From the NCBI RefSeq assembly GCF_965363235.1, contig NC_134847.1:63980144-64044143 (forward strand): a stretch of 64,000 nucleotides of DNA. Direction: 5' to 3'. The DNA comes from Mytilus galloprovincialis. Lineage: Eukaryota. A model generated the notes under the pieces. It did no database searches. It had not been told where the DNA came from and saw only the letters and a list, made by a program, of their open reading frames with translations. The position numbers and the translations under genes were made by a program. Position 1 is the stretch's first letter. Each line of letters starts with the position of its first letter. Below are positions 1,586 through 63,955 of the stretch, in pieces.

Positions 1586-1673
1586 GTTGCAACGTGGCAT
1601 TTGTGATTTACTCTTTTTTCATATTAATAAATATGCAAACTTAACAACATATTATATTACAAATAAAACATAC

Positions 1674-2003
1674 CTGTTTTGAAAAATCATCATAGGTAAT
1701 AATTGGTCCAGTGAAAAACAAAGGATAGTAAAAGCAATAACTAAATGCATCCAACAAAGAAAAGTGAATCTCCTCTTTTTGTTTCATTTCTTCGTCAGGT
1801 TTTCTTGTAGGACAGGCACTTTCGCTTAGTTTTGTTGTAGCGCTTTGCTGTAGAGGAGCTTTGCAAAATACATATTGTTTAATTGAGGCAGCATACTCCA
1901 CTCGCTCAAGACAAAAACTTGTATAACGTAGATGTGTAAGCGATAATGTAGCCATTAAGGCGTAGTATGAGTTCCTTCTTGAGTCCTCAGGGGTCAATGA
2001 ATT
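1674..2003 (-). CDS. HHAT-like exon 5: NSLTPEDSRRNSYYALMATLSLTHLRYTSFCLERVE...HFSLLDAFSYCFYYPLFFTGPIITYDDFSKQ
   Basis: Acceptor ttttatag, donor gtatgt at 1673; RYTSFCLE and YYPLFFxGPIxxxxDF are MBOAT HHAT/Gup1 signature blocks. Confidence 0.55.
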
Positions 2004-21479: not shown

Positions 21480-23110
21480 TACAAATAGAGTGAAGATAGA
21501 TTAATTTTAATTGAAATTTCAAAGACTTTAATTCCATTTGAAAAGGATTTCTATTAATTTCAAAGACTTTAATTCCATTTGAAAAAGATTTCTATTCACT
21601 TATACAAAGTTATTGTACGAAAACCAAGAAGAATGCTTATTTGGGCCCTTTTAGGGCCCCTAATTCCTTAACTGTTCAGACCAAAAATCCAAGAATCATT
21701 CCTAACCTTCCTATTGTGGTCATTAACCTTGGGTTTAAATTTGATAGATTTCTATTTACTTATACTTAAGTTATTGTGCGAAAACCAAGAAAAATGCTTA
21801 TTTGGGCCCTTTTTTGGCCCCTTATTCCTATTAGGACCACAACTCCCAAAATCGATCCCAACCTTTCTTAAGTGGTATTGAACCTTGTTTTAACAAATTA
21901 TAAACCTTGTTTTAACAAATTATAGAGATCCATTCACTAAAACTAAAGTTATTGTCCGGAAACTAAATGCGTCTTTGGACGACTACCACAACATCATACC
22001 ATTATACGACACAAAAATAACAAGAATGTGTCCATAGTACACCGATGCCCCACTCGCATTATCATTTTCTATGTTCAGTAGACCGTGAAATTGGGGTCAA
22101 AACTCTAATTTGGCAATTAAATTAGAAAGATCATATCATAGGGAACATGTGTACTAAGTTTGAAGTTGATTGGACTTCAACTTCATCAAAAACTACCTTG
22201 ACCAAAAATTTAACCTGAAACTTGCACTATTATTTTCTATGTTCAGTGGACCGTGAAATTGGGGTCAAAAGTCTAATTTGGCAATTAAATTAGAAAGATC
22301 ATATCATAGGGAACATGTTTATTTAGTTTGAAGTTGATTGGACTTTAACTTTATCAAAAACTACCTTGACCAAAAAATTTAACCTGAAACTTGCACTATT
22401 ATATTCTATGTTCAGTGGACTGTGAAATTGGGGTCAAAAGTCTAATTTGGCAATTAAATTAGAAAGATCATATCATAGGGAACATGTGTACTAAGTTTAA
22501 AGTTGATTGGACTTCAACTTCATCAAAAACTACCTTGACCAAAAACTTTAACCAGAACGAACGGGACGACAGACAGATGAACGGATGGACGGACGGACAG
22601 ACCAGAAAACATAATGCCCCTCTACTATCGTAGGTGGGGCATAAAAATAAATTGTATATTTAACTTCTTATTATAGATAAGCATGGACACATCTTCAGGT
22701 CCCAATAAATTCAAGACATTTTGATAAATTGCTGCACTACCAGTGTATGATATATAAAAAAGAAGATGTGGTATGATTGCCAATGATATGCATGTCATGA
22801 GCAATCAATATTAAAGTATGTTTAAAAGAATTATGAACAAGAATGTGACCATAGTACACAGATGCTACCACTCGCACTATCATTTACTATGTTCAATGGA
22901 CTGTGAAATTGGGGTCAAAACTGTAATTTGGCATTAAAATTAGAAAAATCATATCACAGGGACCATGTATAAAAAAATTCAAGTAGATTTGTCTTCAACT
23001 TCAGCAAAAACTACCTCGACCATAAACTTTCTTGGAGCAGGACAGATGACTGGACGGAAGAACGGACTGATGCACAGACCAGAAAACATAATGCCCATAA
23101 ATGTTTGTAA
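21480..23110. repeat. Composite intronic tandem-repeat block: ~110-bp units (21480-21990), then 3 copies of a ~175-bp unit (22040-22560) ending in a gacggacgga-rich linker, plus a diverged 4th copy (22820-23110) with the same linker
   Basis: Direct repeats of cactattattttctatgttcagtggaccgtgaaattggggtcaaaagtctaatttggcaattaaattagaaagatcatatcatagggaacatgt... Confidence 0.85.
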
Positions 23111-23231: not shown

Positions 23232-23296
23232 CAAGCCCTGAGTTTCAAGTTTGGCCATGTGTTCAATTTCCTCTGCTTCAGCCTTTAACTTGGCAG
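23232..23296 (-). CDS. MVP: MVP exon 23: SAKLKAEAEEIEHMAKLETQGL
   Basis: Acceptor gtattacag, donor gtaagt; ~ human VLQAKLKAQALAIETEAELQRVQ. Confidence 0.85.
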
Positions 23297-23639
23297 CTGT
23301 AATACAGATTTTAAGCATAAGCATTGTATGGAATAACGTTAAAATCTTGAGTTCATTTCAGACAATTTTAATGATATGTATATTGTATTTTGATAAAAAC
23401 AAGCAAATGTCTTTTTATCGTCACCAACTAAACTATGGGTCGCCATATTCTGGTTGGACAAAGTTATATTTTTAGGCAAAGAACAATCAACTGTATCTAT
23501 CATAAGATTGTGTTCTGTTTAACATGACTGCTGTAGGGTTTGTAGGGTTGGTTTACAGAACTGCTGATAGTTTGGAAGGATCAATTCAAATATATTTTTG
23601 GCCTCAGGGGTCAAGAAATTTTAATTGTTTATTTACATT

Positions 23640-23730
23640 ACTAGCTTGTCACCACTGAGGTTATGAATTTAAACTCTGTATGTAGCAGTTTGTCTGACTA
23701 CAATCTAAATTGACTAGGATTGCCTGTTAT
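23640..23730 (+). mobile_element. tRNA-derived SINE fragment
   Basis: ccactgaggttatgaattt...ctaaattgactaggattgcctgtt matches the SINE copies at 6189 and 62145. Confidence 0.4.
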
Positions 23731-23984
23731 TGTGTCAAAGGTTGTGGTTATCTACAGATTCCTCCCCAAATAAAAAATGGCTGCCAAAATATAGCTAAGA
23801 GAGCTGAAGGTCATGTTAAATACCAACAATCAATTGATCATATAATATTCATTTTATTTTTTTATTCAAATGTGTTCAACTTTGCCTTTTTATTACATTG
23901 AAGTTATGAAACTCCAAATAACATTAAACAGATAAAAGAATTATCCAATCCAATTAAGTTTAAGGGCTTTTTTTCTTGGCTTTT

Positions 23985-24725
23985 TTATTAAGCTTGTGTT
24001 TGACTTACATTCTATTTCACTTTCACACTCTATCAGCATTCTCTCAGCCTGTACTTGTGTTTGACTTACATTCTATTTCACTTTCACACTCTATCAGCTT
24101 TCTCTCAGCCTGTGCTTGTAACTTGCCTTCTGTTTGACTTACATTCTATTTCACTTCCACTATATAAGCATTTTCTCAGCCTGTGCTTGTGACTCGCCTT
24201 GTGTTTGACTTACATTCTATTTCACTTTCACTATATTAGCTTTCTCTCAGCCTGTGCTTGTGACTCGCCTTGTGTTTTACTTACATTCTATTTCACTTTC
24301 ACTATATTAGCTTTCTCTCAGCCTGTGCTTGTGACTCGCCTTGTGTTTTACTTACATTCTATTTCACTTTCATATTCTATCAGCATTCTCTCAGCCTGTG
24401 CTTGTGACTCGGCTTGTGTTTGACTTACATTCTATTTCACTTTCACACAGCATTCTCTCAGCCTCTGCTTATGTTTGACTTACATTCTATTTCACTTTCA
24501 CACTCTATTAGCATTCTCTCAGCCTGTACTTGTGTTTGACTTACATTCTATTTCACTTTAACACTCTATTAGCATTCTCTCAGCCTGTACTTGTGTTTGA
24601 CTTACATTCTATTTCACTTTCATATTCTATCAGCATTCTCTCAGCCTCTGCTTGTGTTTGACTTACATTCTATTTCACTTTCACACTCTATTAGCATTCT
24701 CTCAGCCTGTGCTTGTGACTCAGCT
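23985..24725 (-). repeat. Satellite of ~11 units (62 or 74 bp). Each unit is a copy of the 3' end of MVP exon 22 (…AQAERMLIECESEIE) plus its gtaagtcaaacacaag splice-donor/intron start
   Basis: Read on the minus strand, each unit is caggctgagagaatgctgatagagtgtgaaagtgaaatagaatGTAAGTcaaacacaag. The array directly abuts the exon. Confidence 0.9.
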
Positions 24726-24893
24726 TTAGCTTGACCAGTAGATTCCACGGCCGCAGTGATAGCTTGTAATTCTAATAACTTTGTCTTTTCTTTCTCAGAA
24801 TCCATTTCATTAAGCAATTTCTGTCGTTCAAGTTGACCTCTGGCTATTTGTTCATTTCTGCTAGCTTCGTGGGATGCTGAGGCTTCTATTGAT
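24667..24893 (-). CDS. MVP: MVP exon 22 (coiled-coil): KSIEASASHEASRNEQIARGQLERQKLLNEMDSEKEKTKLLELQAITAAVESTGQAKAESQAQAERMLIECESEIE
   Basis: Acceptor ttttcatag, donor gtaagt at 24666; ~ human [74 protein letters not shown]. The 3' end is continuous with the tandem array at 23985-24725. Confidence 0.85.
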
Positions 24894-25201: not shown

Positions 25202-25302
25202 TTTGTAGATATTTCTATAGCTAACTGTACAGATTTACTTAAACTGTCTCTCATCTTAGCATCAACTGGTTCAATAGACTGGATATCTACACTGCTGATT
25301 AC
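25202..25302 (-). CDS. MVP: MVP exon 21: [33 protein letters not shown]
   Basis: Acceptor tatttacag, donor gtaagt; ~ human [34 protein letters not shown]. Confidence 0.9.
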
Positions 25303-29454: not shown

Positions 29455-29514
29455 CTCAAAATGGTTGTTGAAAGCTAACTGCAGTCTTAGTCTCGCATGA
29501 TCTGATGTTTCTAC
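29455..29514 (-). CDS. MVP: MVP exon 18: VETSDHARLRLQLAFNNHFE
   Basis: Acceptor gattatag, donor gtacgg; ~ human [20 protein letters not shown]. Confidence 0.9.
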
Positions 29515-29789: not shown

Positions 29790-30600
29790 AGGGTATAAAC
29801 TTTTATAGTGTAAAAGAGAAAAGGTGTGAACCTTTATGGTGTGAAAGAAAAATAATGTGACCCTTCAATGTGTAAAAGAGAAAGGATGTGAACTATAACG
29901 GTGTAAAAAAGAAAGAATGTGAACCTTTATGGTGTAAAAAAGACAAGATGTGAACCTTTATGGTGTAAAACAGAAACTGTGTGAACCTTCAAAGGTGTAA
30001 AACAGAAACTGTGTGAACCTTTATGGTGTAAAACAGAATCTGTGTGAACCTTCAAGGTGTAAAACAGAAACTGTGTGAACCCTTATGGTGTAAAATAGAA
30101 ACTGTGTGAATCTTTATTGTGCAAAAGGGAAAGTGTGTGAACCTTTATGGTGTAAAAGAGAAACTGTGTGAATCTTTATGGTGTAAAACAGAAACTGTGT
30201 GAACCTTTATGGTGTAAAACAGAATCTGTGTGAACCTTCAAGGTGTAAAACAGAAACTGTGTGAACCCTTATGGTGTAAAATAGAAACTGTGTAAATCTT
30301 TATGGTGCAAAATAGAAACTGTGTAAATCTTTATGGTGCAAAAGAGAAACTGTGTGAATCTTTATGGTGCAAAAGGGAAACTGTGTGAATCTTTATGGTG
30401 TAAATGAGAAAGTGTTTTAACCTTCATGGTGTAAAAGAGAAAGAGTGTGAACCTTTATGGTGTGAGAGAGAAACGGTACAAATCTTTATGGTGCAAAAGA
30501 GAAGGAATGTGAACCTGTTTGGTGTAAAATAGAAACTGTGTGAACCTTTATGGTATAAATAGAAACTGTGTGAATCTTTATGGTATAGTTTTAAAGAAAA
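29790..30600. repeat. Minisatellite, ~41-bp unit (tgtgaacctttatggtgtaaaacagaaactg), ~20 copies
   Basis: Contiguous head-to-tail units with no spacers, so not CRISPR-like. Confidence 0.9.
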
Positions 30601-30608
30601 CTGTTTAC

Positions 30609-49008: not shown

Positions 49009-49113
49009 TTATTTGTTGTACTGGATAATATCTTGTTTATATTGGAGTTCACTATATTTTCTCTGTAATTCTTTCTCTCTCTCCTGTTGTCTATTTACAT
49101 CTTCTGTCAGGGA
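49009..49113 (-). CDS. CDC5L: CDC5L terminal exon: [34 protein letters not shown]
   Basis: Acceptor tactttcag; stop TAA at 49009-49011; ~ human [34 protein letters not shown]. Confidence 0.85.
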   Translation of the reverse strand, partial: [34 protein letters not shown]

Positions 49114-49996
49114 CTGAAAGTAATAAATAAGCAAATAAAATAATTTGACAGATTAAAATACAGAACAGCTAATATTTTGATACCCCTTACAGCAATTGTT
49201 TTTTGGTCTTATTGATACATTTGCAGTTTCTAGACAATCAATTAAATCAACATAATGCAATACTTGGGAACATTAAAACAATGTTATGAAAGTTTAAATT
49301 GATTTTTTGGCCTTTGAAAGTCTGAGATGTGCCACTTGATATTCTGCAAATTGTGAATTATTAGCCTATAATAAATTTATACTAAGTGGAATCATTTAAA
49401 TTTATGGTTTTCCTAAACCTGTTGGTATCCAAATTAACAATGAATCCACAGACACATGTTTTCGTACAATATTCAAAGTGTATGCCCTTACTGATAAAAT
49501 ATTTCAAGTGTTTCATCTGCTGATATATAAACCATGCCATCTAATAACATTATATCAGTACCTACTGTGCGAGGGCTGAATAACCAGTCAAGGTCATTAA
49601 AAACTCCCATCATTATCAACATTATTTCAGTATATTTCATACGGTTATATGATGTACAGTGCTGTGCAATGTAACTCTATGACATATACATCATGCCATC
49701 TTCTCTATGACATATACATCATGTCGTCTTATAACATTATAGCAGTACATTCCTAAGTCTATGTCATGAACAGTGTAGCACATTGTTTCTCTCTGATATA
49801 TAAATCATGCCTTCTTATAAAATTATATCAGTATATTTCATACAGCTTTATCATGAACAGTGTAGTTCAGTGTTTTTCTCAGATATATAAACCATGCCTT
49901 TTTATAACATTATAGCAGTATATTTCTACGGCTATGTCATGAACAGTGTAGCGCATTGTTACTCTATGACATACAGGTAATGTAATCATCACTCAC

Positions 49997-50125
49997 CTCC
50001 TTTCTCTTAGGAATGGCTCCAATCTCATGCTGCCTAAGATCTACAAAGGTCCGTAACTCTACATGTGTTTGTTCTATTTGTTCATACAAATCATGGATCT
50101 GCTTGATTAAACTTTGGGACCGTGA
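49997..50125 (-). CDS. CDC5L: CDC5L exon m: SRSQSLIKQIHDLYEQIEQTHVELRTFVDLRQHEIGAIPKRKE
   Basis: Acceptor caatttcag, donor gtgagt; ~ human [43 protein letters not shown]. Confidence 0.9.
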
Positions 50126-50416
50126 CTGAAATTGTACAATAAAGGATTTACTTCTCATAATTTTTTCAAATATTCATCTGTTACAAGTTCTTTATCAATT
50201 ATCTATATAAATAACTTCATAGTTTTAGAGCAAGATACAGTAACAGATTTTGGTACTCCAAAATTTAAATTCTAAGATACCTAAGACTTAAAATCAAATA
50301 CTTTAGAATGAAAAGTGTCTTTAAAAATGATTTTTATATTCAAATTATATAATTATTTTAATAGTTCAGATTGCATTTGTCTGACAAATTAATTAATTTA
50401 ATTTATATCTAACTTA

Positions 50417-50626
<210 letters not shown>

Positions 50627-51219
50627 TCATCATGGGTCCCTTTAAACAAATATAATTGAAGGGAAATATGAAATATTATTTACATATATGTCCTTTAAGG
50701 CAAACAGTCGATTTGCTTATTCTGTAATTCAACATGTAATGAGATATAATTTGATGGTTGTTTCTTTTAACTTATAATGCTTTGTATGTGCAGAAGCTTA
50801 TTTTGTCCAGAATACATTCTGTAATTTATCTGTTTATTTATTTTTCAACAGGTATTTACTTTAGTTGTGCAGTTAATATATTTCTAGACTTTCAGCTCTT
50901 AGATAATCTTTTCTTTCTTAGCATTTATGATGAAATGTTTTTGTTTACTTTTGGTATCAATGTATAAAGTTTCACCTTGAAAAAAAACCTGAAGGACGTT
51001 TGTATTCAGATGAAAAATTTATTGAAAAACATTATGTTTTGATTAGTTTGCTCAAATGATTTCTTCACAAATTAACAGGCTGTTTAAACTAAATTGAAAC
51101 AAAGAAGACACCTCAATCTATCAAATGAAATATGTAACTCAACCTACAGCAGATTTTCAGTGGCCCAAACTAATGACAACTTAAATAATTTCCACTTGTT
51201 TCTTGGAGTGTAAAAGTTA

Positions 51220-51666
<447 letters not shown>

Positions 51667-52127
51667 TTAAGCAGAGAGAATGTTAATTCTTTCTTGGATT
51701 TATATTTGTGTGTTTACAGCAATTATTAATGACCTTTGACCTATTATGTTGCTCATTCATTGCAATGAAACCTTTATATAGGCTGTTATTAGTTATGAAT
51801 GATTGTGATATGTACATTATCTATAATAACTCTCTATTAAGTAGAGGTAAATGGCTAACAGGATGTTTATAGGTGGATATCAAGCTTCAAGTAACCCTTT
51901 GCAATACCAATACTGTTGAGACTCAAATGCAATAATTTGCTGTTTCAGAATCTAACGCATCCGGGGTAATATTTTCATAAGTGTACACCAAAACGTCATA
52001 AACAATGGAAATTCAACCAATGACGTGACGTTATTTTCCTATTAGTGTACGAACAATGAGATTGATTACCCATAGTCCTTAAGTTTCAGAAAAGGCGTAT
52101 TGATGTGCAACACTATGTTAACCATAC

Positions 52128-52322
52128 CTCTTCTAAATCAGCTTCATTGACCTTTTCATATGGATGTTCCTCTAAAAATGATGCATGCTGGGCCTGATTT
52201 AGAACCCCTTTTTGTGTTTGTTTTTTACTTCCTGGTGCGACACCCAGTTGATTAGAACCTGGTGTATATAATGCATCATGATGAAGCATAGTTAACATTT
52301 CTTTTTTGATTAATTCCTCAGC
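52128..52322 (-). CDS. CDC5L: CDC5L exon j: [65 protein letters not shown]
   Basis: Acceptor tatttgtag, donor gtatgg; ~ human [31 protein letters not shown]...YLEHNPYEKFSKEELKK. Confidence 0.85.
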
Positions 52323-52716
52323 CTACAAATAGAGAACAAAGAAATAATTAAATTCTATTTACTTTATTTATTTATACATTGTGTATCACTTTTCATTAAT
52401 TGTAAGGATGTTCATCAGATCACAGATTTCTATTAGACTTGTCTGCAGACTTGAACCAAACAATGAAATCATGTACATGTATCCAGGAAAATTAATGAAT
52501 CCACAGTATTATATTTATGCTATACTAAATAGATAATGCTTTTCCGGTCTAGCAAACAGAGTTTAAACATGAAAACCTGTTGAATTACACCTAAGTGTAG
52601 TACAAAAGAACAAATACTAAATTAGACATAGACGACAGAGGGTTGAGCCATGCTGTACAATTGGTAACTTTTTGGTTGGTAGAATTGTTAAGTATTAAAA
52701 TGTCTATTGATTTTAC

Positions 52717-52841
52717 CTTCTGTAGATCTGTAAGAGCAGGATCACCAGGACCAGCCACTCTCAGTATATTACTGTTGACATCTGTTGGACGGGGCATGTC
52801 TCTCTGTACTGACTGAGATCTCATTCTTAATTCTTTTTGTC
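52717..52841 (-). CDS. CDC5L: CDC5L exon i: RQKELRMRSQSVQRDMPRPTDVNSNILRVAGPGDPALTDLQK
   Basis: Acceptor attttatag, donor gtaaaa; ~ human [40 protein letters not shown]. Confidence 0.85.
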
Positions 52842-53213
52842 CTATAAAATAACCACTGGTTATTTCACCTTTCTATTAAATTATATAAAATAAAATGCTT
52901 TGCTGAGTGCAGCCTGAAACCACCATACTCTTCCTAATTTGATGTAAATCAATGAATGTTTTGAAAACTTTACTGCAAGTTTAGAAATTTGTGTTTGTAT
53001 TTGTTCAGTTTGTTAAACAATGGACAGAAATTCCAAATTAGTAATTGTCATTTCAGTATATATAGTATACTAATAACTCTACAAAGATTTAAAAAAAGTG
53101 TCACCAATAGGTTGCAATTGTTTGCTATAATAAAAAGATCATAAAAAATTTCTGAATTAACAATAAGTTTATCAAAGTCTTGAATGATGGCATTTAGCTG
53201 TATGTATATCTTA

Positions 53214-53394
53214 CTGATAGCTCTCCTCTCCTCCTCTGATGCAGCATCAATGTCTGCCTGATCCTCAATGTAATCGTCTGTCTGCATTGGTTCATGTATA
53301 TCCTGCTCCATGTCTTCGGGAACCACTATTTCATAATCATTTTTAGGACGAGGTAGACTGGCCAAACCATGTTTTAACTGGTCTTTGAGGTCTC
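53214..53394 (-). CDS. CDC5L: CDC5L exon h: RDLKDQLKHGLASLPRPKNDYEIVVPEDMEQDIHEPMQTDDYIEDQADIDAASEEERRAI
   Basis: Acceptor ttttag, donor gtaaga; ~ human [53 protein letters not shown]. Confidence 0.8.
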
Positions 53395-53605
53395 TCTAAA
53401 AACAATAAATATCATATTTATGATTTATGTCAAATTTTCACTTGGTTTACAAATTTTTCATGTTTTTAACATATAAAATTATTTTCTATTTTAGTCATTT
53501 TTTTTACTAGTGGACATCTATTTCATATTCATAATGCTCCAAACTTAAAAACATCTGCATCAAATTTTTATGTAGTATTCTTAAGTAACTGCTTATTTAT
53601 ACATA

Positions 53606-53739
53606 CCTGGTAAAATTTGTCATTAACATTCATGTCATAATCCTCATCAGGGTTAATATTTAGTTTGTCTCTCACAGGTGTCCTCAATGGTGTCTGTCCT
53701 GCCACGCCCATTCTAGGGGTCATACCATGTGGTGTTAAT
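53606..53739 (-). CDS. CDC5L: CDC5L exon g: [45 protein letters not shown]
   Basis: Acceptor aattacag, donor gtatgt; ~ human [45 protein letters not shown]. Confidence 0.85.
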
Positions 53740-54503
53740 GCTGTAATTATTCAAACAAATAATCCCTATTAGAGGGTCCTGATTCAAATTGTTTAGAATA
53801 AAATTGACATAAGCATCATATAATATGGTATCACTAACAACCTATATTTTTTTCTTGGAGATTTTAATGAATTATATTATGAAAGGTAACATAATTTTGT
53901 ATTCTTAACTGAAACAATAAACAAGATACTAGATAACAGGACAATTCTATGTGATCTTCAAACAATGTTGAAAAATATCCAATTTCTGCTTTTCCACTGG
54001 AAATTACTATTATCAGAATGACATGAAAAGTGCAGTGCAGTACTATCTTAGGATAGAGAAGCTTTAACTGGGAGATATGGTATCAAACATGCAAACATTC
54101 AATATTGCCTAACTCACTTTCTTTCTATAGAATTAAGATTGTGTGACCTACTAGGGATTCATTATTATTCATAATTACCAATTTTAGCATATTAAGCAGA
54201 TACAGATGAACCACACATTTAAATGTTAAACTAAGTACAATTTTTCTATTGGCTTATTTGCAGACCATTGTAAAACCACAAAATATCAATGGAAATCTCT
54301 TTTCCTTTATCTATACAAATTTGTACCCACAAAATAAATGAATCACAGTATAAGAACTTCAGTTGTTCAATATATTAAGTAAGGTTCTTTCCAAATTATG
54401 AGCAGCCCAAATGTTTCCTAATTAATTTAATTCTAGTTGGAGGTCTTCAAAAAATCAGCTTTGGTAGCAAAGCTAGGAAAGTGACATTAATCATTGGAGT
54501 CTA

Positions 54504-54701
<198 letters not shown>

Positions 54702-55789
54702 TTAGTTCTATGTATATATAAATAGTAAAAAACAAGGGATAATTTTAGTTCCAGTAAAAAACATAGCTTTCAAAACAACTATTTAAATTTAGAAGTGGAA
54801 AAATAAAATGATATAATTAAAATCTGTCTCTAGCTGAATTTCTTCACATTGGTTCATTTACTTTGTGTTTACCCTTCCGTTAATCAGAATGAGGTCCAAA
54901 TAAAATGATTTTAATGAAATAGAGACCGTATCGTTTATTTTCATACATTGAAAGCAATGTTTATTCAAGAATAAAAAAAAAATCAAAATGATAAAAGATT
55001 TTTAACCCTTACCATGCTGACTTGTTTTCTACAGATGTAGTCTGTATGCTGAATTGTTTTGTTTAAATTTAAAAAAAAATGCCATCATTATTAATTTGTC
55101 CTAAACTAAATGATAAACGCCCCGATTGGTCCAAAACTTGATATCCATATAGTTGAAGAACTATACTTTAATTTGTCTAAATGGTTGCTATGGTAACAAA
55201 CATTTTTGCCTTTTTATTAGTATTTTTTGCATTAAAATGTATTTTACTGGCTAGTCTAGCCATATAATCATTTCTTATCCATCTAAATAAAATTTTAAAA
55301 TGTAGTAAACTGAAAATTACTGAAAATAAAAATACTTATATCACAAAAATGTGAAATTTTAATGTAAATAATATATGACTCACCTGTTTTAAGATGCTCT
55401 TATTGTTACAAGAAATTTATAAGATAACAAATTTTTGCTTTACTACAAACAGTCTCAACACTATAATAAACATGTAATAGATCATAAGAACTAATTCAGT
55501 TTAAGTATTCAAACAAATAAAAAGTGGTTGCTATGGTAACATCTTCGTTTCCTTAGTTTCAATTGCAGGGGAATATGCATTATTAGGACAAAAGTGCAAC
55601 ATAAATTTGACATTTGTAACCTAGAAAGCAGGATATTTTATTTTTGACACATTTGACAACTTAGTTTGTAATTCTTATTACCTCTGTTTCTGTCCAGGTT
55701 TGAATAATTTCAATTTATAACTAGTTTTGTGTTAGGCTATATGATTATATGATGTTTTGATAAGTTTAAGCAATTTTAAATTTTAATGT

Positions 55790-55985
55790 ATTGTTTTCTC
55801 GTTTCAATTGTTTTACATTGTCATTTCGTGGCCTTTTATAGCTGACTATGTGGTATGGGCTTTGCTCATTGTTGAAGACCGTATGGTTACCTATAGTTGT
55901 TAATTTCTGTGTCATTTTGGTCTCTTGTGGAGAGTTGTCTCATTGGCAATCATACCACATCTTCTTTTTTATACACAAGTTTTAT
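55790..55985 (+). mobile_element. SINE/MITE-like repeat (…gtctcattggcaatcataccacatcttc family) nested inside the 3' non-coding part of the piggyBac element
   Basis: …ggccttttatagctgactatgtggtatgggctttgctcattgttgaagaccgtatggttacctatag…gagagttgtctcattggcaatcataccacatcttc. Confidence 0.65.
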
Positions 55986-56390
55986 CTGTAGATGTACAAA
56001 CTTAAACGTCTTAAACATATTTTTTCTGATAAAGGAATGGGATTTTTTGTTATGTTCCAATCAAATTCAGGTAATAAAAATACTCTTCCTTTATACAAAC
56101 AACTATACTGACAACAAATTGTATATACCATGCCGCTGAATTTTAAGCAGACAAAACCCTACCAAATCATTGACTTTTGTAAGATCATTTGAATGTACAC
56201 AACTGAAAAGATTGGTTGCCTCGTAATTAACATTTACTCCACATCTCCTTGTTTGTCTACTGACTAGTACTGTTCTTAATTAAAAATTATGAAAAGGTCA
56301 TTTGATACTGTAATTGAAAACAATAATCCATAACTACAATTTTATAATAACTAAATTGATATTGATAACATATAAACATGCACAAAGAAA

Positions 56391-58232
56391 CTATTCCTCA
56401 TCAACTGGTTGGACAGAAGAATTCTTCCATCTCTTGTAAGCAACAACATATTCCTTTTGTGTATGCCATATCTTAAAGCATGGTTCAATGCACAAAGAAA
56501 CATTACATTCTCTACATTCGTAACAAGTCTCATGACCTGGCCGTTTGCGTTTTTGTAGGTTGTTCATATTTACATTGTTCTTTTCAGCCTCATTGCAGAC
56601 TTTGCATAAACGTGCAATGTTTTTTTTTTTGCCCACCCCTACAATTCTAGAAATGAAATGTCTTTCACTTAGGCGTTCTAATTTCGCATTTGAAGGCCTT
56701 CCTACTTTATCACTTTCTATTGGGTTATTAGATACAAGTTCAGTTATTAATTGTCTTCTGAACGCTTTATGTGTTATATTAGGGTGGTCAGCTTTATACA
56801 AAGTGTATGCATCTAGAACAGCAATAGCAAGAACATGGAAAATTACCTTTTTCCACCACTTAAATGATTTAACAACACTATTAATGTAAGTAATCATTTG
56901 ATCAGACCGATCAACACCACCCATATATTTATTATAGTAGTTCACAACACTAGGTTTTCTTATATAATCATTTGTCTCACGGTCACGACGGCGTGTGTTG
57001 ACCAAATTGGTTTTATGTATAGTCGAAAGCATAAAAACAGCCTTTCCATCAAGAAATTTGACACAATTTAAAGGACCATTACTCATTACAGAAAGATCTC
57101 CTTTATTTGTAAGTTTTTTGTCTTTCAAAAATTGTGGAATACCACGACGGTTAGACCTTACAGTGCCTGTCGCTCCTACACCTAGACCATAGAGATCCCA
57201 AAATAGTTGGGGTGATGTGTAGTAATTGTCACAATACAGATTATAACCTTTTTCATACATGCCTCGTAACATATCCATGACTAAGTCATACGTCGCGCCA
57301 TTTGAGCTTGGACCGATACCCGACTTTCCTGTATACAATTTAAATTTTGAAACATAACCGTTACTGGAGTCACTGATCATGTAGGCTTTGATTCCATATT
57401 TAACTGGCTTGTCAGGACTGTAAACTCGAAATGATAGATTACCCCTCCAAGGAATCATTCCTTCATCTAATGAAATTGATTGACCAGGTGTGTAAACTGA
57501 GTGAAATCTGTTTACAATACGACCATAGAAAGTTCCAAGTTTAAAAAGTGGGTTGTAGTTTGGTTGACCTCTAGCAACATACTCATCATTGTTGGCAAGA
57601 TGGAAGAAAGATGACATTAGGAGAAATCTGTCTCTTGGCATAGTTGACGGAAAGAATGGTGTTGAAGTGACAGGGTTTTTACTCCAGTAATCAGTCACGT
57701 CTGACTGTGACAGAATACCCATTGCAAAAACTACAGCAATGAAACGCTTCATTTCTGTGGCAGTAGTGTTTGTCCACTTTCTAAACCTTGAAAATCTGCT
57801 CAAGTTATTGTTTTTATCAAGATATTGCTTTGCGTATCTGTTTGTTTCCTCAGAAATGTTCTCAAAATCATTTTCATTGACATATAAATAGAAATAATCA
57901 GAAACGGACGCATTGTCTGGGAGGTCACACTTAATTCCTGGGGTTTGCGTAAAAGGTAGAAGTTCTGGATTTTTTTCACCCATAACCCAGTTATCAATAT
58001 CAAACAAATCATCTCTTTCAGAAACATTGTCAATATTTAGGTCATCCTCAGCAAAGTCATTTTCAGTAAATCCTTCAAATTCTTCATTTTCACTATCAGT
58101 GTCAGCAAATAGTTCACATATATTTTCAGCAATAGATGTGCTGGCTTCTGCCATTATCAGAAAGTAAACACAGAAACGCCCCCTTTTTATTTTATTTTGC
58201 GAAAAAGAAAAGATAGAAAAAAATAGCTGCAT
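56391..58232 (-). CDS. piggyBac-family (DDE_Tnp_1_7) transposase, 613 aa in the longest ORF; the likely true start is the internal Met at 58154 (MAEASTSIAEN...), giving 587 aa
   Basis: Catalytic DDD context is present (…ISLDEGMIPWRG…, …YCDNYYTSPQLFWDLYGLGVGATGTVRSNRRGIP…, …YMGGVDRSDQMI…). The C-terminal Cys-rich domain is CKVCNEAEKN…CYECRECNVSLCIEPCFKIWHT. There are no frameshifts or stops. Confidence 0.95.
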   Translation of the reverse strand: MQLFFSIFSFSQNKIKRGRFCVYFLIMAEASTSIAENICELFADTDSENEEFEGFTENDFAEDDLNIDNVSERDDLFDIDNWVMGEKNPELLPFTQTPGIKCDLPDNASVSDYFYLYVNENDFENISEETNRYAKQYLDKNNNLSRFSRFRKWTNTTATEMKRFIAVVFAMGILSQSDVTDYWSKNPVTSTPFFPSTMPRDRFLLMSSFFHLANNDEYVARGQPNYNPLFKLGTFYGRIVNRFHSVYTPGQSISLDEGMIPWRGNLSFRVYSPDKPVKYGIKAYMISDSSNGYVSKFKLYTGKSGIGPSSNGATYDLVMDMLRGMYEKGYNLYCDNYYTSPQLFWDLYGLGVGATGTVRSNRRGIPQFLKDKKLTNKGDLSVMSNGPLNCVKFLDGKAVFMLSTIHKTNLVNTRRRDRETNDYIRKPSVVNYYNKYMGGVDRSDQMITYINSVVKSFKWWKKVIFHVLAIAVLDAYTLYKADHPNITHKAFRRQLITELVSNNPIESDKVGRPSNAKLERLSERHFISRIVGVGKKKNIARLCKVCNEAEKNNVNMNNLQKRKRPGHETCYECRECNVSLCIEPCFKIWHTQKEYVVAYKRWKNSSVQPVDEE

Positions 58233-59304
58233 ATTTTGGATAACTCATTGGAAAAACAACAAAACTCATTCATATTTATCAATTTATTTTTCTTGAATAT
58301 ACCTGAAAAGCCCATAAATATGGGAAAATATCAGACGATAAATAGATTTGACAACGGATTCACATTTTGTTTCTTTGATTCACGTTTCTTTTATTTCGGA
58401 AAAGAATTCCAAGTTTTCAAAGATTTTCGAGGAATATAGGTATTAACAGCACCTAGAAAGATGGATTTGTGTTCAGGCATTATTAATTTTATGGGAAATG
58501 TGTATCCTCAAGCATGGACACTGATAGAGTTACTGAAAAAAACTATAAATTGTTGGTAACAAACTGTGCGGCAACTTTCATTTTCTCTTTCGGAACGTCT
58601 CTCAAGCGAGTAAACTTCCGGTTGATATTTCCATACAATTTATGTATTTTTACCACCAAACTTCTAAATTTGCAAAATATCAATCAAATAACAACGATAA
58701 ATTAATATTCACCTTTAAGACAATATTTTATTCTTACGGTTTTAGACGAAATCTATTTATATAATACAGGAAAGGGCGGGGCATGTGCGCGGGAATTTCA
58801 TATTTCACGTAAACTGTTTTATTTCATATTTTTACTTAAATAATTCCATTTTTTTCACAAAAGAACTTTTACACGTGTCAAAATATTCTTCTATTTACCC
58901 AGACATATAGTTTTGATAATCAAATGAACAAGAATTGAGCGAGGACGAAAAGGATTTCCCTAGATGTATTTTTAGATTTTTTACGTCATGCCAAAAACAA
59001 ATTATTTTCCTGAAAGTAAAATTAAAGTGTATATTTGTTTATTATAAAGACTTAAAATGGTTCAAATTGAATAATGGATATAGATCTGATGGCTCATTCA
59101 AATTTAAACTCGGAGTTTTGTGATTATGCGAGGATTTGAAGGTTTTTTGAAAGGTCAGAAAATTGCCAGTGTAACCCGTCAAAAGACGGGTTCCGCACTG
59201 AGAACGACGACGTCAAACCCGTCAAAAGACGGGATCCGCATGGTAAGGGTTAATGCAAAGTTGCAAAAGAAAAATTCATATGACAGTGTGAGAGAAAAAT
59301 ACTA

Positions 59305-59478
<174 letters not shown>

Positions 59479-60193
59479 CTAAAACAGAATTATGCAATAA
59501 CATATACAGTACAGATTTAGTATTTACAAAATGTATAAATTAACTCTTTTGGAATTTTAAGAAGTTGGTATCTTTCACTTCAGAAAGAGGCTCATACTTT
59601 ACAACTCATCACTGTCATGATGCTGACCAAACATGGAGTCATTCTGTTTAAGAGTAGTAGAAAAGTGTGATGATAATATTTGTTAAACGAATAAATTTAC
59701 AAATATAAATTGCTTTAATTTGGCTGCATCTAATATTTGAAATACAGAAAATTACTTTCACAAACTTAACAGATCTACATTTTGATGATATATTGGTGCA
59801 AAAGTATGACAAATAAAATAAAGAACTTATTTCTTGTCATGAAATTACTTTTAACAATTCAACAAGATACAAAGCAATATGTCAACATTATAATAAAATT
59901 TAAAATAGATGAAGAATGTGTCCCCCCCATTTTTCATATAACTTTATAAAGAGACATTATTTCAGAAAGGTAAAAATCCAAATTCAAACTTGTTTTTTCA
60001 GCATTGTATATCATTGAGGAAAGCTGAAATAAGAGAACAGAAACTATAAACTCAAGTTCAAATCAGCCTAATCACTTTAAAGGAGGTTGAAAAATGTAAA
60101 AGATAACAAATGCAAATTGTAAAGATATGTCAGATGTGTTTGTACTAGTTCACATGGACAAATCTGCCCAAGAGAGCTAGACATACAACTGAC

Positions 60194-60269
60194 CTCTTCT
60201 AATTCTAAATCAGAGATCTGTGGAGCTGGCAATACAAGTTTACTTCTCTTTTTCACTGGTTCTTGGAAA
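60194..60269 (-). CDS. CDC5L: CDC5L exon d: [26 protein letters not shown]
   Basis: Acceptor tatttttcag, donor gtcagt; ~ human [24 protein letters not shown]. Confidence 0.8.
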
Positions 60270-61469
60270 CTGAAAAATAAATTAATATGATATAAAGTGA
60301 ATTTTTACATATGCTGTGTCTATTCAAATCAGGGCTTCCAAAAAATATTTGAGCCAGCCGGACATTTCATATCTGATCCAGATTTTAATCCCTTAAGACT
60401 TAGTCACAAAAGGCAATTATGGTAATCAGATGGCCATTCCAATGATTGACATTACATTAAAAAAAAAAACGATTTTAAACTTTACTTTGATATGATATGA
60501 ATTTGATGTACGGATGTAACTGTTAAATTGGCAGTGCATCATTCAAAGTGTGCACATCAGCGTGCTCATATCTGCCTTAGACTTTTTATTTGTGCAAAAT
60601 GACATTGTCAAAAACTTTACTTTCGTTTCAAATTGTTCTAACCGGAGAGGTCAACCGGATGTTGACTTGACAATGGTAAAACATGGACCATAAACGGATA
60701 TGTAAAATCAGTGTACGTTAACAAAGCACGACTGAGTGAAGAAGCTCTTTCCACGTTATTTCTTCAACAAAATACTTGAAATGAACGTTAGATACATGTA
60801 TCAATGATAATTTTAGCATTTTTGAAGAAATGTAGGATGCATAATTAAATTTCCCACCTGTGCACATGCGCACACGTGTTCTAGTTCATACGACGTAGTT
60901 CTGAGGATTTTTCATTTAAATCCTTTTTAAATTTTTCATCAAATCATGTTGATAACTAATTTCTAATAATTTTAATCTTTTGGACTAAATCAATTAGAAA
61001 CAAACCGCTGAAAAGTAAGAACAAAAATTGTGAATAACCGATCAATTTATACAATGTCTGGTACTGAACATAGTTCACCTGTCACCTGAACAGGTAGATT
61101 TCAGCTGTCCAACTACTAATTTGCCTTGATTAAAATTATAAAGTATTGAAGTAGGTGTTGTTTTAATAGTAATTAATCATCATGTCACATTTATGACTGG
61201 AAATGTGATGATGTTAAAGGCAAAAGGTTGGGTCAAAAAGATCGTGAATTATGTAAAAATGACCGAAAAAGCCTTGAAAACTAAAAAGTATATGACCGTT
61301 TCATACTTTGACCAGCCGGACTTTTACCAGACATTATACAAATGACCGGAATATATGACCGTTTTGGAAGCCCTGATTCAAATCTGTTTTTCTTCTTATT
61401 TTTTATAACAACAGGGACTTTGGTGGCCAGATGGTATAAGAAGTCAAACTTCTGTATCGCTAGCCTGCA

Positions 61470-62150
61470 AACTAGAGGCTCTAAAGAGCCTGTGTCGCTG
61501 ACCTTGATCTATGTGCATATTAAACAAGGACATAAATGGATTCATGACAAAATTGTATTTTGGTGATGGTGATGTGTTTGAAGTTCTTACTTTACTGAAC
61601 GTTCTTGCTTCTTACAATTATATCTATAATGAACTTTGCCCATTAGTAACAGAGAAAATTACTTGGTAAAAATTTACATAAATTTACCAAATTAATGAAA
61701 ATTGTTAAAAATTGACTATAAAGGGCAATAACTCCTTAAGGGGTCAATTGACCATTTTGGTCATGTTAACTTATTTGTAGATCTTACTTTGCTGAACATT
61801 ATTGCTGTTTACAGTTTATCTCTATCTATATTAGTATTCAAGATAATAACCAAAAACGGCAAAATTTCTTTAAAAATTACCAATTGGGGGCAGCAACCCA
61901 ACAACCAGTTGTCCAATTCATCTAAAAATTTCAGGGCAGATAGATATTGACTTGATTAACAATTTAGCTCCTTGTCAGATTTGCTCTAAATGCTTTGGTT
62001 TCAGAGTTATAAGCCAAAATCTACATTTTACCCCTGTTCTATTTTTAGCCATGGCGGCCATCTTGGTTGGATGGCCAGGTCATCGGACACATTTTCAAAC
62101 TAGATACCCCAAAGATGACGTTGGCCAAGATTGGATTAATATTTAAATCT
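61470..62150. mobile_element. Diverged single-unit relative of the 27640-29355 element (same gaggctctaaagagcctg..tcgctgacc head, one ~480-bp unit)
   Basis: 61700-62140 aligns with the 480-bp unit (…ggggtcaattgaccattttggtcat[ag]ttaac[ct]tatttgtagatcttactttgctga…tttgctctaaatgcttt…). Confidence 0.55.
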
Positions 62151-62410
62151 GTTTTTCTCCTTCTTTCTGACCGGGATCTCAGTGCCCAAAAGGTCTAAGT
62201 TGTCAAACTTCTACATTGCTAGCCTATCAACACTGAGGTTGTGAGTTCGAATCCCCCATGGGGAAGGTGCACTTTACTCCAATCTTAATTGACTAGGATT
62301 GTCAGTTTTTATAATGGAGGTATTACCGTAGGTGATTTTCTTTGAGCACTCCAGCTGCCTCCACCAATGACCACCACAAAATAGAACATTAGTGCTGAAA
62401 GTGGTGTTTA
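62145..62410 (+). mobile_element. tRNA-derived SINE, full-length copy (A-box-like tctcagtgcc, B box gagttcgaatccc)
   Basis: gaccgggatctcagtgcccaaaagg…caacactgaggttgtgagttcgaatcccccatgg…ttaattgactaggattgtcag…; copies at 6189 and 23640, with a 5'-only fragment at 61380-61470. Confidence 0.65.
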
Positions 62411-62548
62411 TCACCAATTAATCCTATGCCAAAAACAGGCAAACACTAAACAAAACAGCCAAAAAAATGTTTGTAATAAATTTTGTACATTGCGACCAGT
62501 CAAACATTTGTTTAATTACTCTGAGCTTCAAAACAATTTTACACTTAC

Positions 62549-62628
62549 TTGCTTTGGCTGGCTATTGCTCCAGGTAAATCATTTTCTTTTCTTTTCTTTT
62601 GTTTTAGTTTATCTTTCTTTCTTTCTCT
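62549..62628 (-). CDS. CDC5L: CDC5L exon c: RERKKDKLKQKKRKENDLPGAIASQS. The acceptor is either ttttag or ttttagag (NAGNAG); the phase favours the second
   Basis: Donor gtaagt at 62548; ~ human [27 protein letters not shown]. Confidence 0.6.
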
Positions 62629-63117
62629 CTAAAATTGTACAAATAAATACATGTTTATACTTGAAGGGAGAAAATATTTGATAAAAAAGAAAGTATATGT
62701 CTATTTTTTACCTATTGCATTTGAAAATCACAGTCTCAAAAATCTATCCACAACTATTCTCTTTTGTTTCTCTTTGATTTTCTTAGAAATTGCTGGTTGT
62801 GGCAAAGTAAAGAGTATGAAATTGGTAAATTCAGTAATTTTTACATTTATTCATGGACATGAATCCTAAATGGTGATAGTGACACCACCCAATTTTAACT
62901 TGATCTGTGTTTGGTGGTGTATTAGTTTATAAATATCCCGCTGATGTGAAGTAAAGAGAGAATGCAGACAAAAGCAAACAAAAAAGTGATGCCATTCAAA
63001 TTTGAACTTGTTCTATGTTAGGAGGTAATACGCGAGGGCATTATTATCAACATCCAGGAAAATTGTTACCCATGAAAATAAGTGAATTAAAAGTATACTT
63101 GGTAAGAAATGACTTAC

Positions 63118-63221
63118 AGCCTCCGCATCATCTCTTCTTTCTCCATCCAGATTTTGTTGTCTTAATCTTTTAAAGTTAATATCTTTTGGCTTAAAAACTT
63201 CTTCAGATGTGTCATGGAAAC
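63118..63221 (-). CDS. CDC5L: CDC5L exon b: GFHDTSEEVFKPKDINFKRLRQQNLDGERRDDAEA
   Basis: Acceptor ttttgacag, donor gtaagt; ~ human [35 protein letters not shown]. Confidence 0.8.
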
Positions 63222-63878
63222 CTGTCAAAAATAAATGGAATTTTGATAATAAAAAGGAATATGGGAAAGATTTACATCAGACAGTACTCCTTTCCATATC
63301 TGGATAATACTTGAGCCAATTCTCCATTATGACATGTAATCAAATATCCTGGCCTGTATTGCGTCTAGTTGCTTGTTCCTCCTGAACATGCATGAAATAT
63401 TTGCCACTGGATGTTAGCAATCAACAATTTATTTATCAATTTTGTTGCTTGTTATTAACTGATAATAATTGGTCCTTTTCTACTTAAACGCCTCAAATAT
63501 TATTTTTTTTATTAATTTGTGAAATATCAATTTGTTGCTGTTTAAGCTGACTATATAGACTCCCATATCTACCAGTTACTGTTTGTAGAAGGGTGAAACT
63601 AGTGCAAGAAGGAATGTATCATTTTATTTAGTTTCTTTTCTGATTACAGTTGTACACAAAATGTATAATGCCCGTTAAATCAGACTGCTTTATAGCACCA
63701 GACCGCTTCATACACCTTAAATACATTTATCTATTTTTCATTCCTATAAAATTATAATAAATATAACTTTTTTCTGAATTCATGCTCGTTTTTTCAAAAT
63801 TACGACAAAAAATGTATGATAAATTTTGTTTCAAATGATTTCTATGAAGAATGATTATATAGTACAAGTATGACAAAC

Positions 63879-63955
63879 CTGGCGCTGGTTTCTTTTCAAA
63901 CGGAATTTCTGCATTGTAATCTACTCCTCTCTTTTTCTTCTTATGTTTTTTAATA
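63879..63955 (-). CDS. CDC5L: CDC5L exon a: IKKHKKKKRGVDYNAEIPFEKKPAP
   Basis: Acceptor tatttcag, donor gtttgt. Confidence 0.8.

Follow-up and report, generated by a model that had tools for sequence, protein, structure and literature searches.

The MVP locus and coding exon 22

We analyzed a stretch of 64,000 nucleotides from Mytilus galloprovincialis (contig NC_134847.1, positions 63,980,144 to 64,044,143; the whole stretch is called the window below), and in particular a tandem array at the boundary between coding exon 22 and intron 22 of the MVP gene. Residues 1-854 of the RefSeq M. galloprovincialis MVP protein (XP_076077673.1, 854 aa) fall into 26 exon matches between 46598 and 19810 (minus strand), with 100% identity in exons where the proteins of M. 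edulis, M. trossulus and M. coruscus differ. Exon 22 is the 22nd of these 26 coding-exon matches. It comprises 227 nt (window 24893..24667), laid out as 1 nt, 75 codons and 1 nt. Translated from 24892 it reads SIEASASHEASRNEQIARGQLERQKLLNEMDSEKEKTKLLELQAITAAVESTGQAKAESQAQAERMLIECESEIE, starting with SIEAS and closing with the tail AQAERMLIECESEIE, of which the final residues are ECESEIE. The exon ends in AAT, and the intron starts with GTAAGTCAAACACAAG.

An exhaustive protein search with exon 22 identified a 636-aa M. galloprovincialis MVP model with 100% identity across the exon. The cluster containing the M. galloprovincialis MVP protein is represented by P0175 from M. coruscus, and the MVP domains PF01505, PF17794-6 and PF11978 are found in close homologues, P0175 included. 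The exon 22 product aligns to residues 669-740 of rat MVP, for which vault structures have been solved (E = 2.8e-14). Going by the domain limits in the rat vault structure, we take these residues to be the cap-helix (coiled-coil) domain. The original prediction, made from the letters of the window alone, had placed an MVP exon with a splice donor at its end in the coiled-coil part of the protein; translation, rat MVP alignment and sequence agree on this assignment.

Downstream, the T at 24667 joins CT from exon 23 to form a serine codon, yielding ...ECESEIE-S-AKLKAEAEEIEH..., which matches the RefSeq proteins of three Mytilus species exactly. The features of this region are as follows (a slash marks an exon-intron or array junction).

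25202..25302, minus strand: MVP coding exon 21, 101 nt, single copy in the window
24667..24893, minus strand: MVP coding exon 22, from its translation, the rat MVP alignment and the 100% match to M. galloprovincialis MVP
24661..24669, minus strand: authentic 5' splice site AAT/GTAAGT, exon end at 24667 and G of GT at 24666
24651..24723, minus strand: first 73-bp monomer of the array, consisting of the last 57 nt of exon 22 and the first 16 nt of intron 22
23993..24650, minus strand: ten intronic monomers of 61, 61, 61, 55, 73, 71, 71, 71, 73 and 61 bp
23297..23992, minus strand: unique remainder of intron 22, with the acceptor ...ctgtattacag/ at its 3' end
23232..23296, minus strand: MVP coding exon 23, 65 nt, encoding (S)AKLKAEAEEIEHMAKLETQGL, with the donor TTG/GTAAGT

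A minisatellite spans the exon 22/intron 22 boundary

Tandem Repeats Finder places the array at 23993-24721, with periods of 61 and 71-73 bp, which bears out the predicted tandem repeat. Its intronic part is 658 bp long (24650..23993), and 731 bp are reached when the exon-embedded first monomer is included. Intronic monomers range from 55 to 73 bp, with 61, 71 and 73 bp as the main sizes, and replace the units of 62 or 74 bp proposed earlier. The copied exon portion amounts to 45 nt in the shorter monomers, as had been proposed for all units, and to 57 nt in the longer ones.

Cutting the array at the donor motif gives 11 donors in total. These are the authentic site and 10 downstream pseudo-donors (G of GT at 24605, 24544, 24483, 24428, 24355, 24284, 24213, 24142, 24069 and 24008), one fewer downstream than the approximately 11 originally counted. 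AAT/GTAAGT is intact in every monomer, with the same 9-mer AATGTAAGT at 11/11 sites, and all 11 donors are identical over positions -20 to +6. The 20-mer AAGTGAAATAGAATGTAAGT occurs 11 times, always within the array and nowhere else in the window (chance expectation 0.01). Outside the donor region the monomers have diverged by substitutions and indels: pairwise identity between monomers ranges from 68 to 99%, and the 73/71-bp monomers are 86-93% identical to the exon copy.

The array thus consists of head-to-tail intronic monomers, the first of which extends across the exon-intron boundary, with the donor repeated identically, as in boundary-spanning minisatellites. The term satellite, used in the original prediction, is too strong for 11 copies at a single locus within the window, since satellite DNA forms long arrays and/or occupies many loci.

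The invariant 20-mer had six isolated chance matches in metagenome contigs, all single copies without extension. A protein search with the array-translated open reading frame (ORF) for other alleles yielded no match, and look-ups of the read-through ORFs of the window and of P0032 returned no record. Among the matches to exon 22, those with two stretches were considered as further exon-end duplications and rejected, as they were small-intron read-throughs in other lineages or unrelated repeats. The 894-aa transcript P0306 was likewise discarded as a duplication, because it represents a 5'-UTR read-through.

Species history and probable origin of the array

Other bivalves share the exon 22 end, ...LIEC(E/H/Q)SEIE, as seen in ORF fragments and loci. 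In a comparison of loci L001-L008, the exon end and the position and phase of the intron were conserved in seven loci from other bivalves, and an array is missing from five of these. The presence of exon end and intron in array-free bivalves, together with the alignment to rat MVP, identifies the exon as ancestral and the array as derived. The earlier proposal that the repeat descends from the exon end and its 5' splice site is upheld by this conservation.

Within Mytilus, M. trossulus, M. edulis and M. galloprovincialis have 2, 9 and 11 copies, respectively, so that the suggested comparison with related species reveals a lineage-specific array. M. trossulus (locus L016, GCA_036588685.2) has only the exon copy and one 73-bp duplicate, and 3/3 differences in the exonic part of the duplicate are synonymous, caa/cag at two codons and ata/att at one. 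M. edulis (locus L021, GCA_963676685.2) has 9 donors in monomers of 73, 77, 61, 73, 59, 73, 61, 71 and 73 bp, in a unit order that differs from that of M. galloprovincialis. Two subtypes are common to these two species, a 61-bp form with CAGAGG+GATAGAAT and a form with a 2-nt deletion (TATATA--GTG). The shared subtypes imply that the array was already complex before the split of M. edulis and M. galloprovincialis and has been reshuffled since. The unique remainder of intron 22 is about 75-90% identical to the M. trossulus intron. Judged by these sequence comparisons, the array appears to be a young, lineage-specific and rapidly evolving variable number tandem repeat (VNTR).

The ends of the unit suggest how it may have arisen. 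Exon 22 includes GAGTCACAAGCACAGG, and a 7-nt direct repeat, CACAAGC, brackets the unit with a spacing of 73 nt.

24711..24717, minus strand: CACAAGC, exonic copy, preceding the intronic copy of each 73-bp monomer by exactly 73 nt
23992..23998, minus strand: CACAAGC, last intronic copy, at the junction of array and unique intron (CACAAG/CTTAAT)

In all three species the array ends with ...CAAACACAAG/CTTAAT. The array was probably seeded at this direct repeat. The seed would have been a 73-bp tandem duplication between the exonic and the intronic copy of CACAAGC (intron positions +10 to +16 and the next base), produced by replication slippage or by microhomology-mediated duplication. Expansion and diversification would have followed by unequal exchange or slippage, with the 61-bp subtype arising when 12 nt were lost between two neighboring CACAAG repeats, and the 71-bp subtype through a 2-nt deletion.

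Microhomology-mediated tandem duplication with subsequent unequal exchange is the general origin of minisatellites. The Mytilus arrays resemble this pattern in having short direct repeats at the flanks of the unit (CACAAGC at exon 22, CTAGG at exon 9 and ATTGT(G/T)TAGTC at exon 2, the last two exons discussed below) and in subtypes apparently formed by deletion between adjacent short repeats. The Rogers model describes intron gain by tandem duplication of a wholly exonic segment containing AGGT. There, too, a tandem duplication repeats splice-site sequence, but intron 22 is old and conserved, and the duplication only lengthens its 5' end. Under that model the intron would be absent where the duplication is absent, whereas intron 22 is found at the same position and in the same phase in L001-L008.

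Comparison with human boundary-spanning minisatellites

The closest known counterpart is a 37-bp VNTR in intron 7 (IVS7) of human F7, the first element of which lies across the exon 7/IVS7 boundary (Borensztajn et al., 2006; PMC1557585). Behind the authentic F7 donor come 4-8 identical pseudo-sites. Splicing is restricted to the most upstream donor, and the results with fifty constructs favored a scanning mechanism oriented 5' to 3' (PMC1557585). The same study lists four further cases. In IFI6 (6-16), intron 2 has 25 pseudo-sites, the first two of which are also used, constitutively; in CBS, intron 13 has 15-20 repeats, and again the first two pseudo-sites are used constitutively; in LMNB2 (100 bp, 10-15 repeats) and PDGF intron 4 (81 bp, 16-18 repeats) the authentic site alone is used (PMC1557585). 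With these precedents in F7, IFI6, CBS, LMNB2 and PDGF, the earlier description of the Mytilus array as unusual stands only in part.

By its structure, the MVP array fits this class already described in human genes. Like F7, it has a boundary-spanning first monomer, an authentic donor followed by identical pseudo-donors, and a normal product from the most upstream donor only. The first monomer also crosses the boundary in IFI6, CBS, LMNB2 and PDGF, which reiterate 10-25 donors, and the monomers of LMNB2 and PDGF are similar in size to those of MVP. None of these four cases concerns MVP or an invertebrate. The array also differs from F7, most strikingly in its exonic portion. F7 monomers contain 4 exon nucleotides, whereas the Mytilus monomers carry 45-57 purine-rich exon nucleotides, so that the pseudo-donors share the exonic context of the authentic donor. 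Some F7 pseudo-sites would keep the reading frame, but none does in Mytilus MVP. Copy number varies between alleles in F7 and between species in Mytilus. Finally, donor use in F7 was tested with constructs, whereas in Mytilus MVP it is inferred.

Further arrays at MVP splice donors

Exon 22 is not the only MVP exon with a repeated end. In M. trossulus, the last 38 nt of exon 21 and the donor (GTAAGTCTA) are present 27 times with a 47-bp period (L016 20225-21492), versus one copy of the exon 21 end in the window (at 25202) and in M. edulis. Among the 26 donors downstream of the first in this array, 5 are mutated, and read-through meets a TAA at the donor itself. In M. edulis, the last 24 nt of exon 2 followed by GTATGT(A) form an array of about 29 units with a period of 31 bp (L021 9326-10252). 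The corresponding exon end in the window (44163) is a single copy, followed at intron position +7 by ATTGTTTAGTC, an imperfect echo of 11 nt. A third array is present in the window itself.

29798..30608, minus strand: minisatellite in intron 17 starting at the exon 17 donor, 31 bp in about 25 copies

The intron-17 unit, ACCATAAAG/GTTCAC..., resembles the exon 17 junction, ATCATTGAG/GTAAAC..., and may be derived from the exon 17/intron 17 boundary, although a similarity of about 65-70% does not make this certain. Orthologous arrays have 8 copies in M. trossulus (L016 16665-16907) and 22 in M. edulis (L021 22524-23216). Many of the pseudo-donors have decayed from GT to AT, and the array is older.

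In M. coruscus, the protein model P0174 (875 aa) contains an in-frame 21-aa repeat (LGKLELRIGCSSFFLHPGKLK). This is probably the read-through of a 63-bp duplication of the exon 9 end and its donor between CTAGG repeats. In the window, exon 9 ends at about 35978, and CTAGG lies at intron positions +12 to +16.

A second mytilid (L003 1193-1463 and L004, from the Logan assemblies of SRR26215656 and SRR26215655) has approximately four 85-bp copies of the exon 22 end. The unit consists of its own exon 22 end and 42 nt of intron, with one SNP between the two samples. An independent origin of this array is the more likely reading. Against shared ancestry with the Mytilus array, the intronic part measures 16 nt in one and 42 nt in the other with different unit boundaries, the choice at a leucine codon is in each array that of its own lineage (CTA/CTG versus TTG/GTG), third-codon identity of the exon between the lineages is only about 52%, and a third mytilid lineage of about equal divergence (L001/L002) lacks an array.

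To ask how often arrays sit at donors is to apply thresholds set after seeing the data, and the following statistics are post hoc in that sense. Of approximately 13 distinct MVP arrays in the three Mytilus species, 4 begin at a donor, versus about 8.5% expected under random placement (binomial P ~0.02); for minisatellites with at least five copies, it is 4/4 (P ~5e-5). A tandem-repeat scan of five other bivalve loci found no donor-anchored array, only intron-interior ones.

Two candidates in the window were rejected as donor-anchored. An 86-bp array of 3 copies in CDC5L (49701-49965) starts about 30 nt after a donor (exon end at about 49996) and excludes it. A minisatellite of 50 copies of 27 bp (2-1358), truncated by the edge of the window, is separated from the nearest recognizable exon by about 300 nt.

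It is possible, if doubtful, that 5' splice sites in Mytilus MVP are preferred seeds or expansion points for minisatellites. The probable exon 9 duplication of M. coruscus and the 85-bp array of the second mytilid would conform to such a preference. If so, chance plus tolerance would not be the explanation, and one would have to consider a mutational process coupled to splice sites (such as slippage linked to transcription or to U1) or selection in favor of additional U1 sites. Part of the pattern would follow from donor choice: if the most upstream site wins, duplicated donors stay intronic while duplicated acceptors would add sequence to the mRNA, which would account for an asymmetry between donors and acceptors. 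The excess of donor-anchored over intron-interior arrays is left without explanation by this argument, and the general duplication process alone likewise leaves the donor position of the multi-copy MVP arrays unaccounted for.

Other observations in the window

Read on the minus strand, the 27-bp unit includes AATGTATGT and CAGTAAAC, which resemble donors. About 300 nt upstream of this array is an exon-like ORF (1641-1997, minus strand) with a putative MBOAT/HHAT-like motif. MVP intron 23 contains three tandem copies of a 169-bp repeat (22052-22557) that is conserved in M. edulis (L021 28038-28539); close to it, at about 22600-22640, is a MITE-like sequence, gccccacctacgatagtagaggggcattatg, which also occurs in L016.

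The gene directly upstream of MVP, on the same strand, is CDC5L (pre-mRNA splicing factor CDC5/CEF1; 49012-63954, minus strand). A fused M. edulis model (CAG2197308.1, 1565 aa) causes CDC5L to be clustered with MVP in the protein database. Exon 18 (29455-29514, minus strand) is missing from two older MVP models of M. galloprovincialis, VDI74247.1 and VDI74248.1, both of which have aberrant C-termini; the 854-aa RefSeq model includes it.

Reading frame, likely donor choice and probable neutrality

Reading through the first donor gives ECKSNTSRG*, with a TGA nine codons beyond the end of exon 22. This TGA is part of the insert for every downstream donor, and only donor 1 provides an open frame into exon 23, as originally predicted. 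The reason given then, that read-through shifts the frame since the units are not multiples of 3, fails for the third, seventh and ninth downstream donors, where the cumulative inserts of 183, 453 and 597 nt are all multiples of 3. It is consequently the in-frame TGA, and not unit length alone, that excludes the downstream donors. Overall, all three frames of the array are closed, by 21-25 stops.

Protein and transcript data agree with the use of donor 1. The RefSeq MVP proteins of M. galloprovincialis, M. edulis and M. trossulus all have 854 aa and the junction ...SEIE-SAKLK..., in keeping with ...SEIE-S-AKLKAEAEE as the sequence across the exon 22/23 join. A Logan contig from run SRR13891792 contains a complete, uninterrupted M. 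coruscus MVP ORF and is for this reason taken to be RNA-derived. It aligns without gaps and with 96% identity to window exons 21, 22 and 23 joined at donor 1. Transcript-derived MVP proteins of two other mytilids show the same exon 22/23 junction. For M. galloprovincialis itself, no RNA for the MVP locus was found in the collections searched.

Most likely, by analogy with F7, splicing selects the first of the identical donors, and the extra copies stay intronic. The product of a transcript made from any of donors 2-11 would be an MVP without the remainder of the cap-helix and without the cap-ring, and the transcript itself would probably be a target of nonsense-mediated decay. Together, these observations are consistent with a young, species-variable VNTR with a boundary-spanning first monomer, most likely near-neutral because donor 1 would be used and the additional copies would remain within the intron. 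We give this reading a probability of roughly 0.8. The decay of pseudo-donors in the intron-17 array and in the exon-21 array of M. trossulus (5/26 mutated) also speaks for an absence of selection.

Several points weigh against near-neutrality. In 22/22 monomers of three species GTAAGT is invariant and the central part of the monomer variable, a pattern that could hint at constraint or at homogenization. Pseudo-site use in human IFI6 and CBS makes some leakage plausible in Mytilus, and the 45-57 nt of purine-rich exon sequence in each monomer could serve the pseudo-donors as a splicing enhancer. The clustering of MVP arrays at donors exceeds a simple neutral expectation (P ~0.02, post hoc). 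Furthermore, the annotation block of the M. trossulus protein XP_063403794 appears to extend to the second-copy donor (L016 22178). An exon end at this position would fit the 854-aa protein only with an extra annotated 73-nt gap or a GC-AG pseudo-intron, and a 73-nt GC-AG pseudo-intron after L016 22059 or 22065 may reconcile the two. The odd exon end may also reflect alignment ambiguity caused by the duplication.

Some of the same evidence would fit a functional array, in which a cluster of U1 snRNP-binding sites or decoy donors tunes MVP expression. One route would be unproductive, stop-containing splicing of a fraction of the transcripts; alternatively, U1 recruitment could shield the AT-rich intron from premature polyadenylation or boost splicing. 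The complete identity of the 11 donors from -20 to +6, the GTAAGT invariant across 22 monomers of three species, several AATAAA motifs just downstream of the array, the recurrence of donor-anchored arrays in MVP, and the use of some pseudo-sites in IFI6 and CBS (PMC1557585) would all be compatible with such a role. Nevertheless, we consider it unlikely: copy number differs widely between sister species (2, 9 and 11), pseudo-donors have decayed in the intron-17 and M. trossulus exon-21 arrays, and other mytilids and bivalves have no array.

True alternative splicing, with the downstream donors generating MVP isoforms with a longer coiled coil, is very improbable. Sequence resembling coiled-coil coding sequence does precede each pseudo-donor, the third, seventh and ninth downstream donors add multiples of 3 nt, and P0174 of M. 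coruscus keeps its frame across a probable 63-bp duplication at the end of a different exon. These points are overridden by the TGA nine codons past donor 1 and the closure of all three array frames, which refute such isoforms at the sequence level. This is also the case in M. edulis, M. trossulus and the second mytilid, and only RNA editing or stop read-through could rescue these products.

An assembly artefact, in which a short duplication was spuriously expanded, has about as little to recommend it. Tandem repeats are error-prone in assemblies, but the monomers differ from each other by substitutions and indels (68-99% pairwise identity), the independent M. edulis assembly has an orthologous array with shared subtypes, and M. 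trossulus has the two-copy version. The reverse direction, in which an intronic satellite came first and the 3' end of the exon was recruited from it, has nothing in its favor beyond the sequence identity itself and is refuted by the conservation of ...AQAER(M/L)LIECESEIE and of the intron position in array-free bivalves and by the alignment of this region with rat MVP.

Implications

The probably near-neutral VNTR at exon 22 of MVP provides a natural test of 5' splice-site choice outside mammals, as it presents eleven identical donors in the same exon context of 45-57 nt. With 2, 9 and 11 copies in sister species, the rule observed for human F7, that the most upstream site wins, becomes testable in a mollusc. 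The array length difference is also a possible nuclear marker within the M. edulis species complex.

Duplicated exon ends are a trap for annotation. The M. trossulus exon seemingly ended at the second copy, the M. coruscus model reads through the probable exon-9 duplication, and older M. galloprovincialis MVP models are fragmentary.

The recurrence of donor-anchored arrays in MVP is the most interesting lead from this analysis. If the clustering of MVP arrays at donors proves to be general, it would suggest that repeat instability has a source linked to splice sites.

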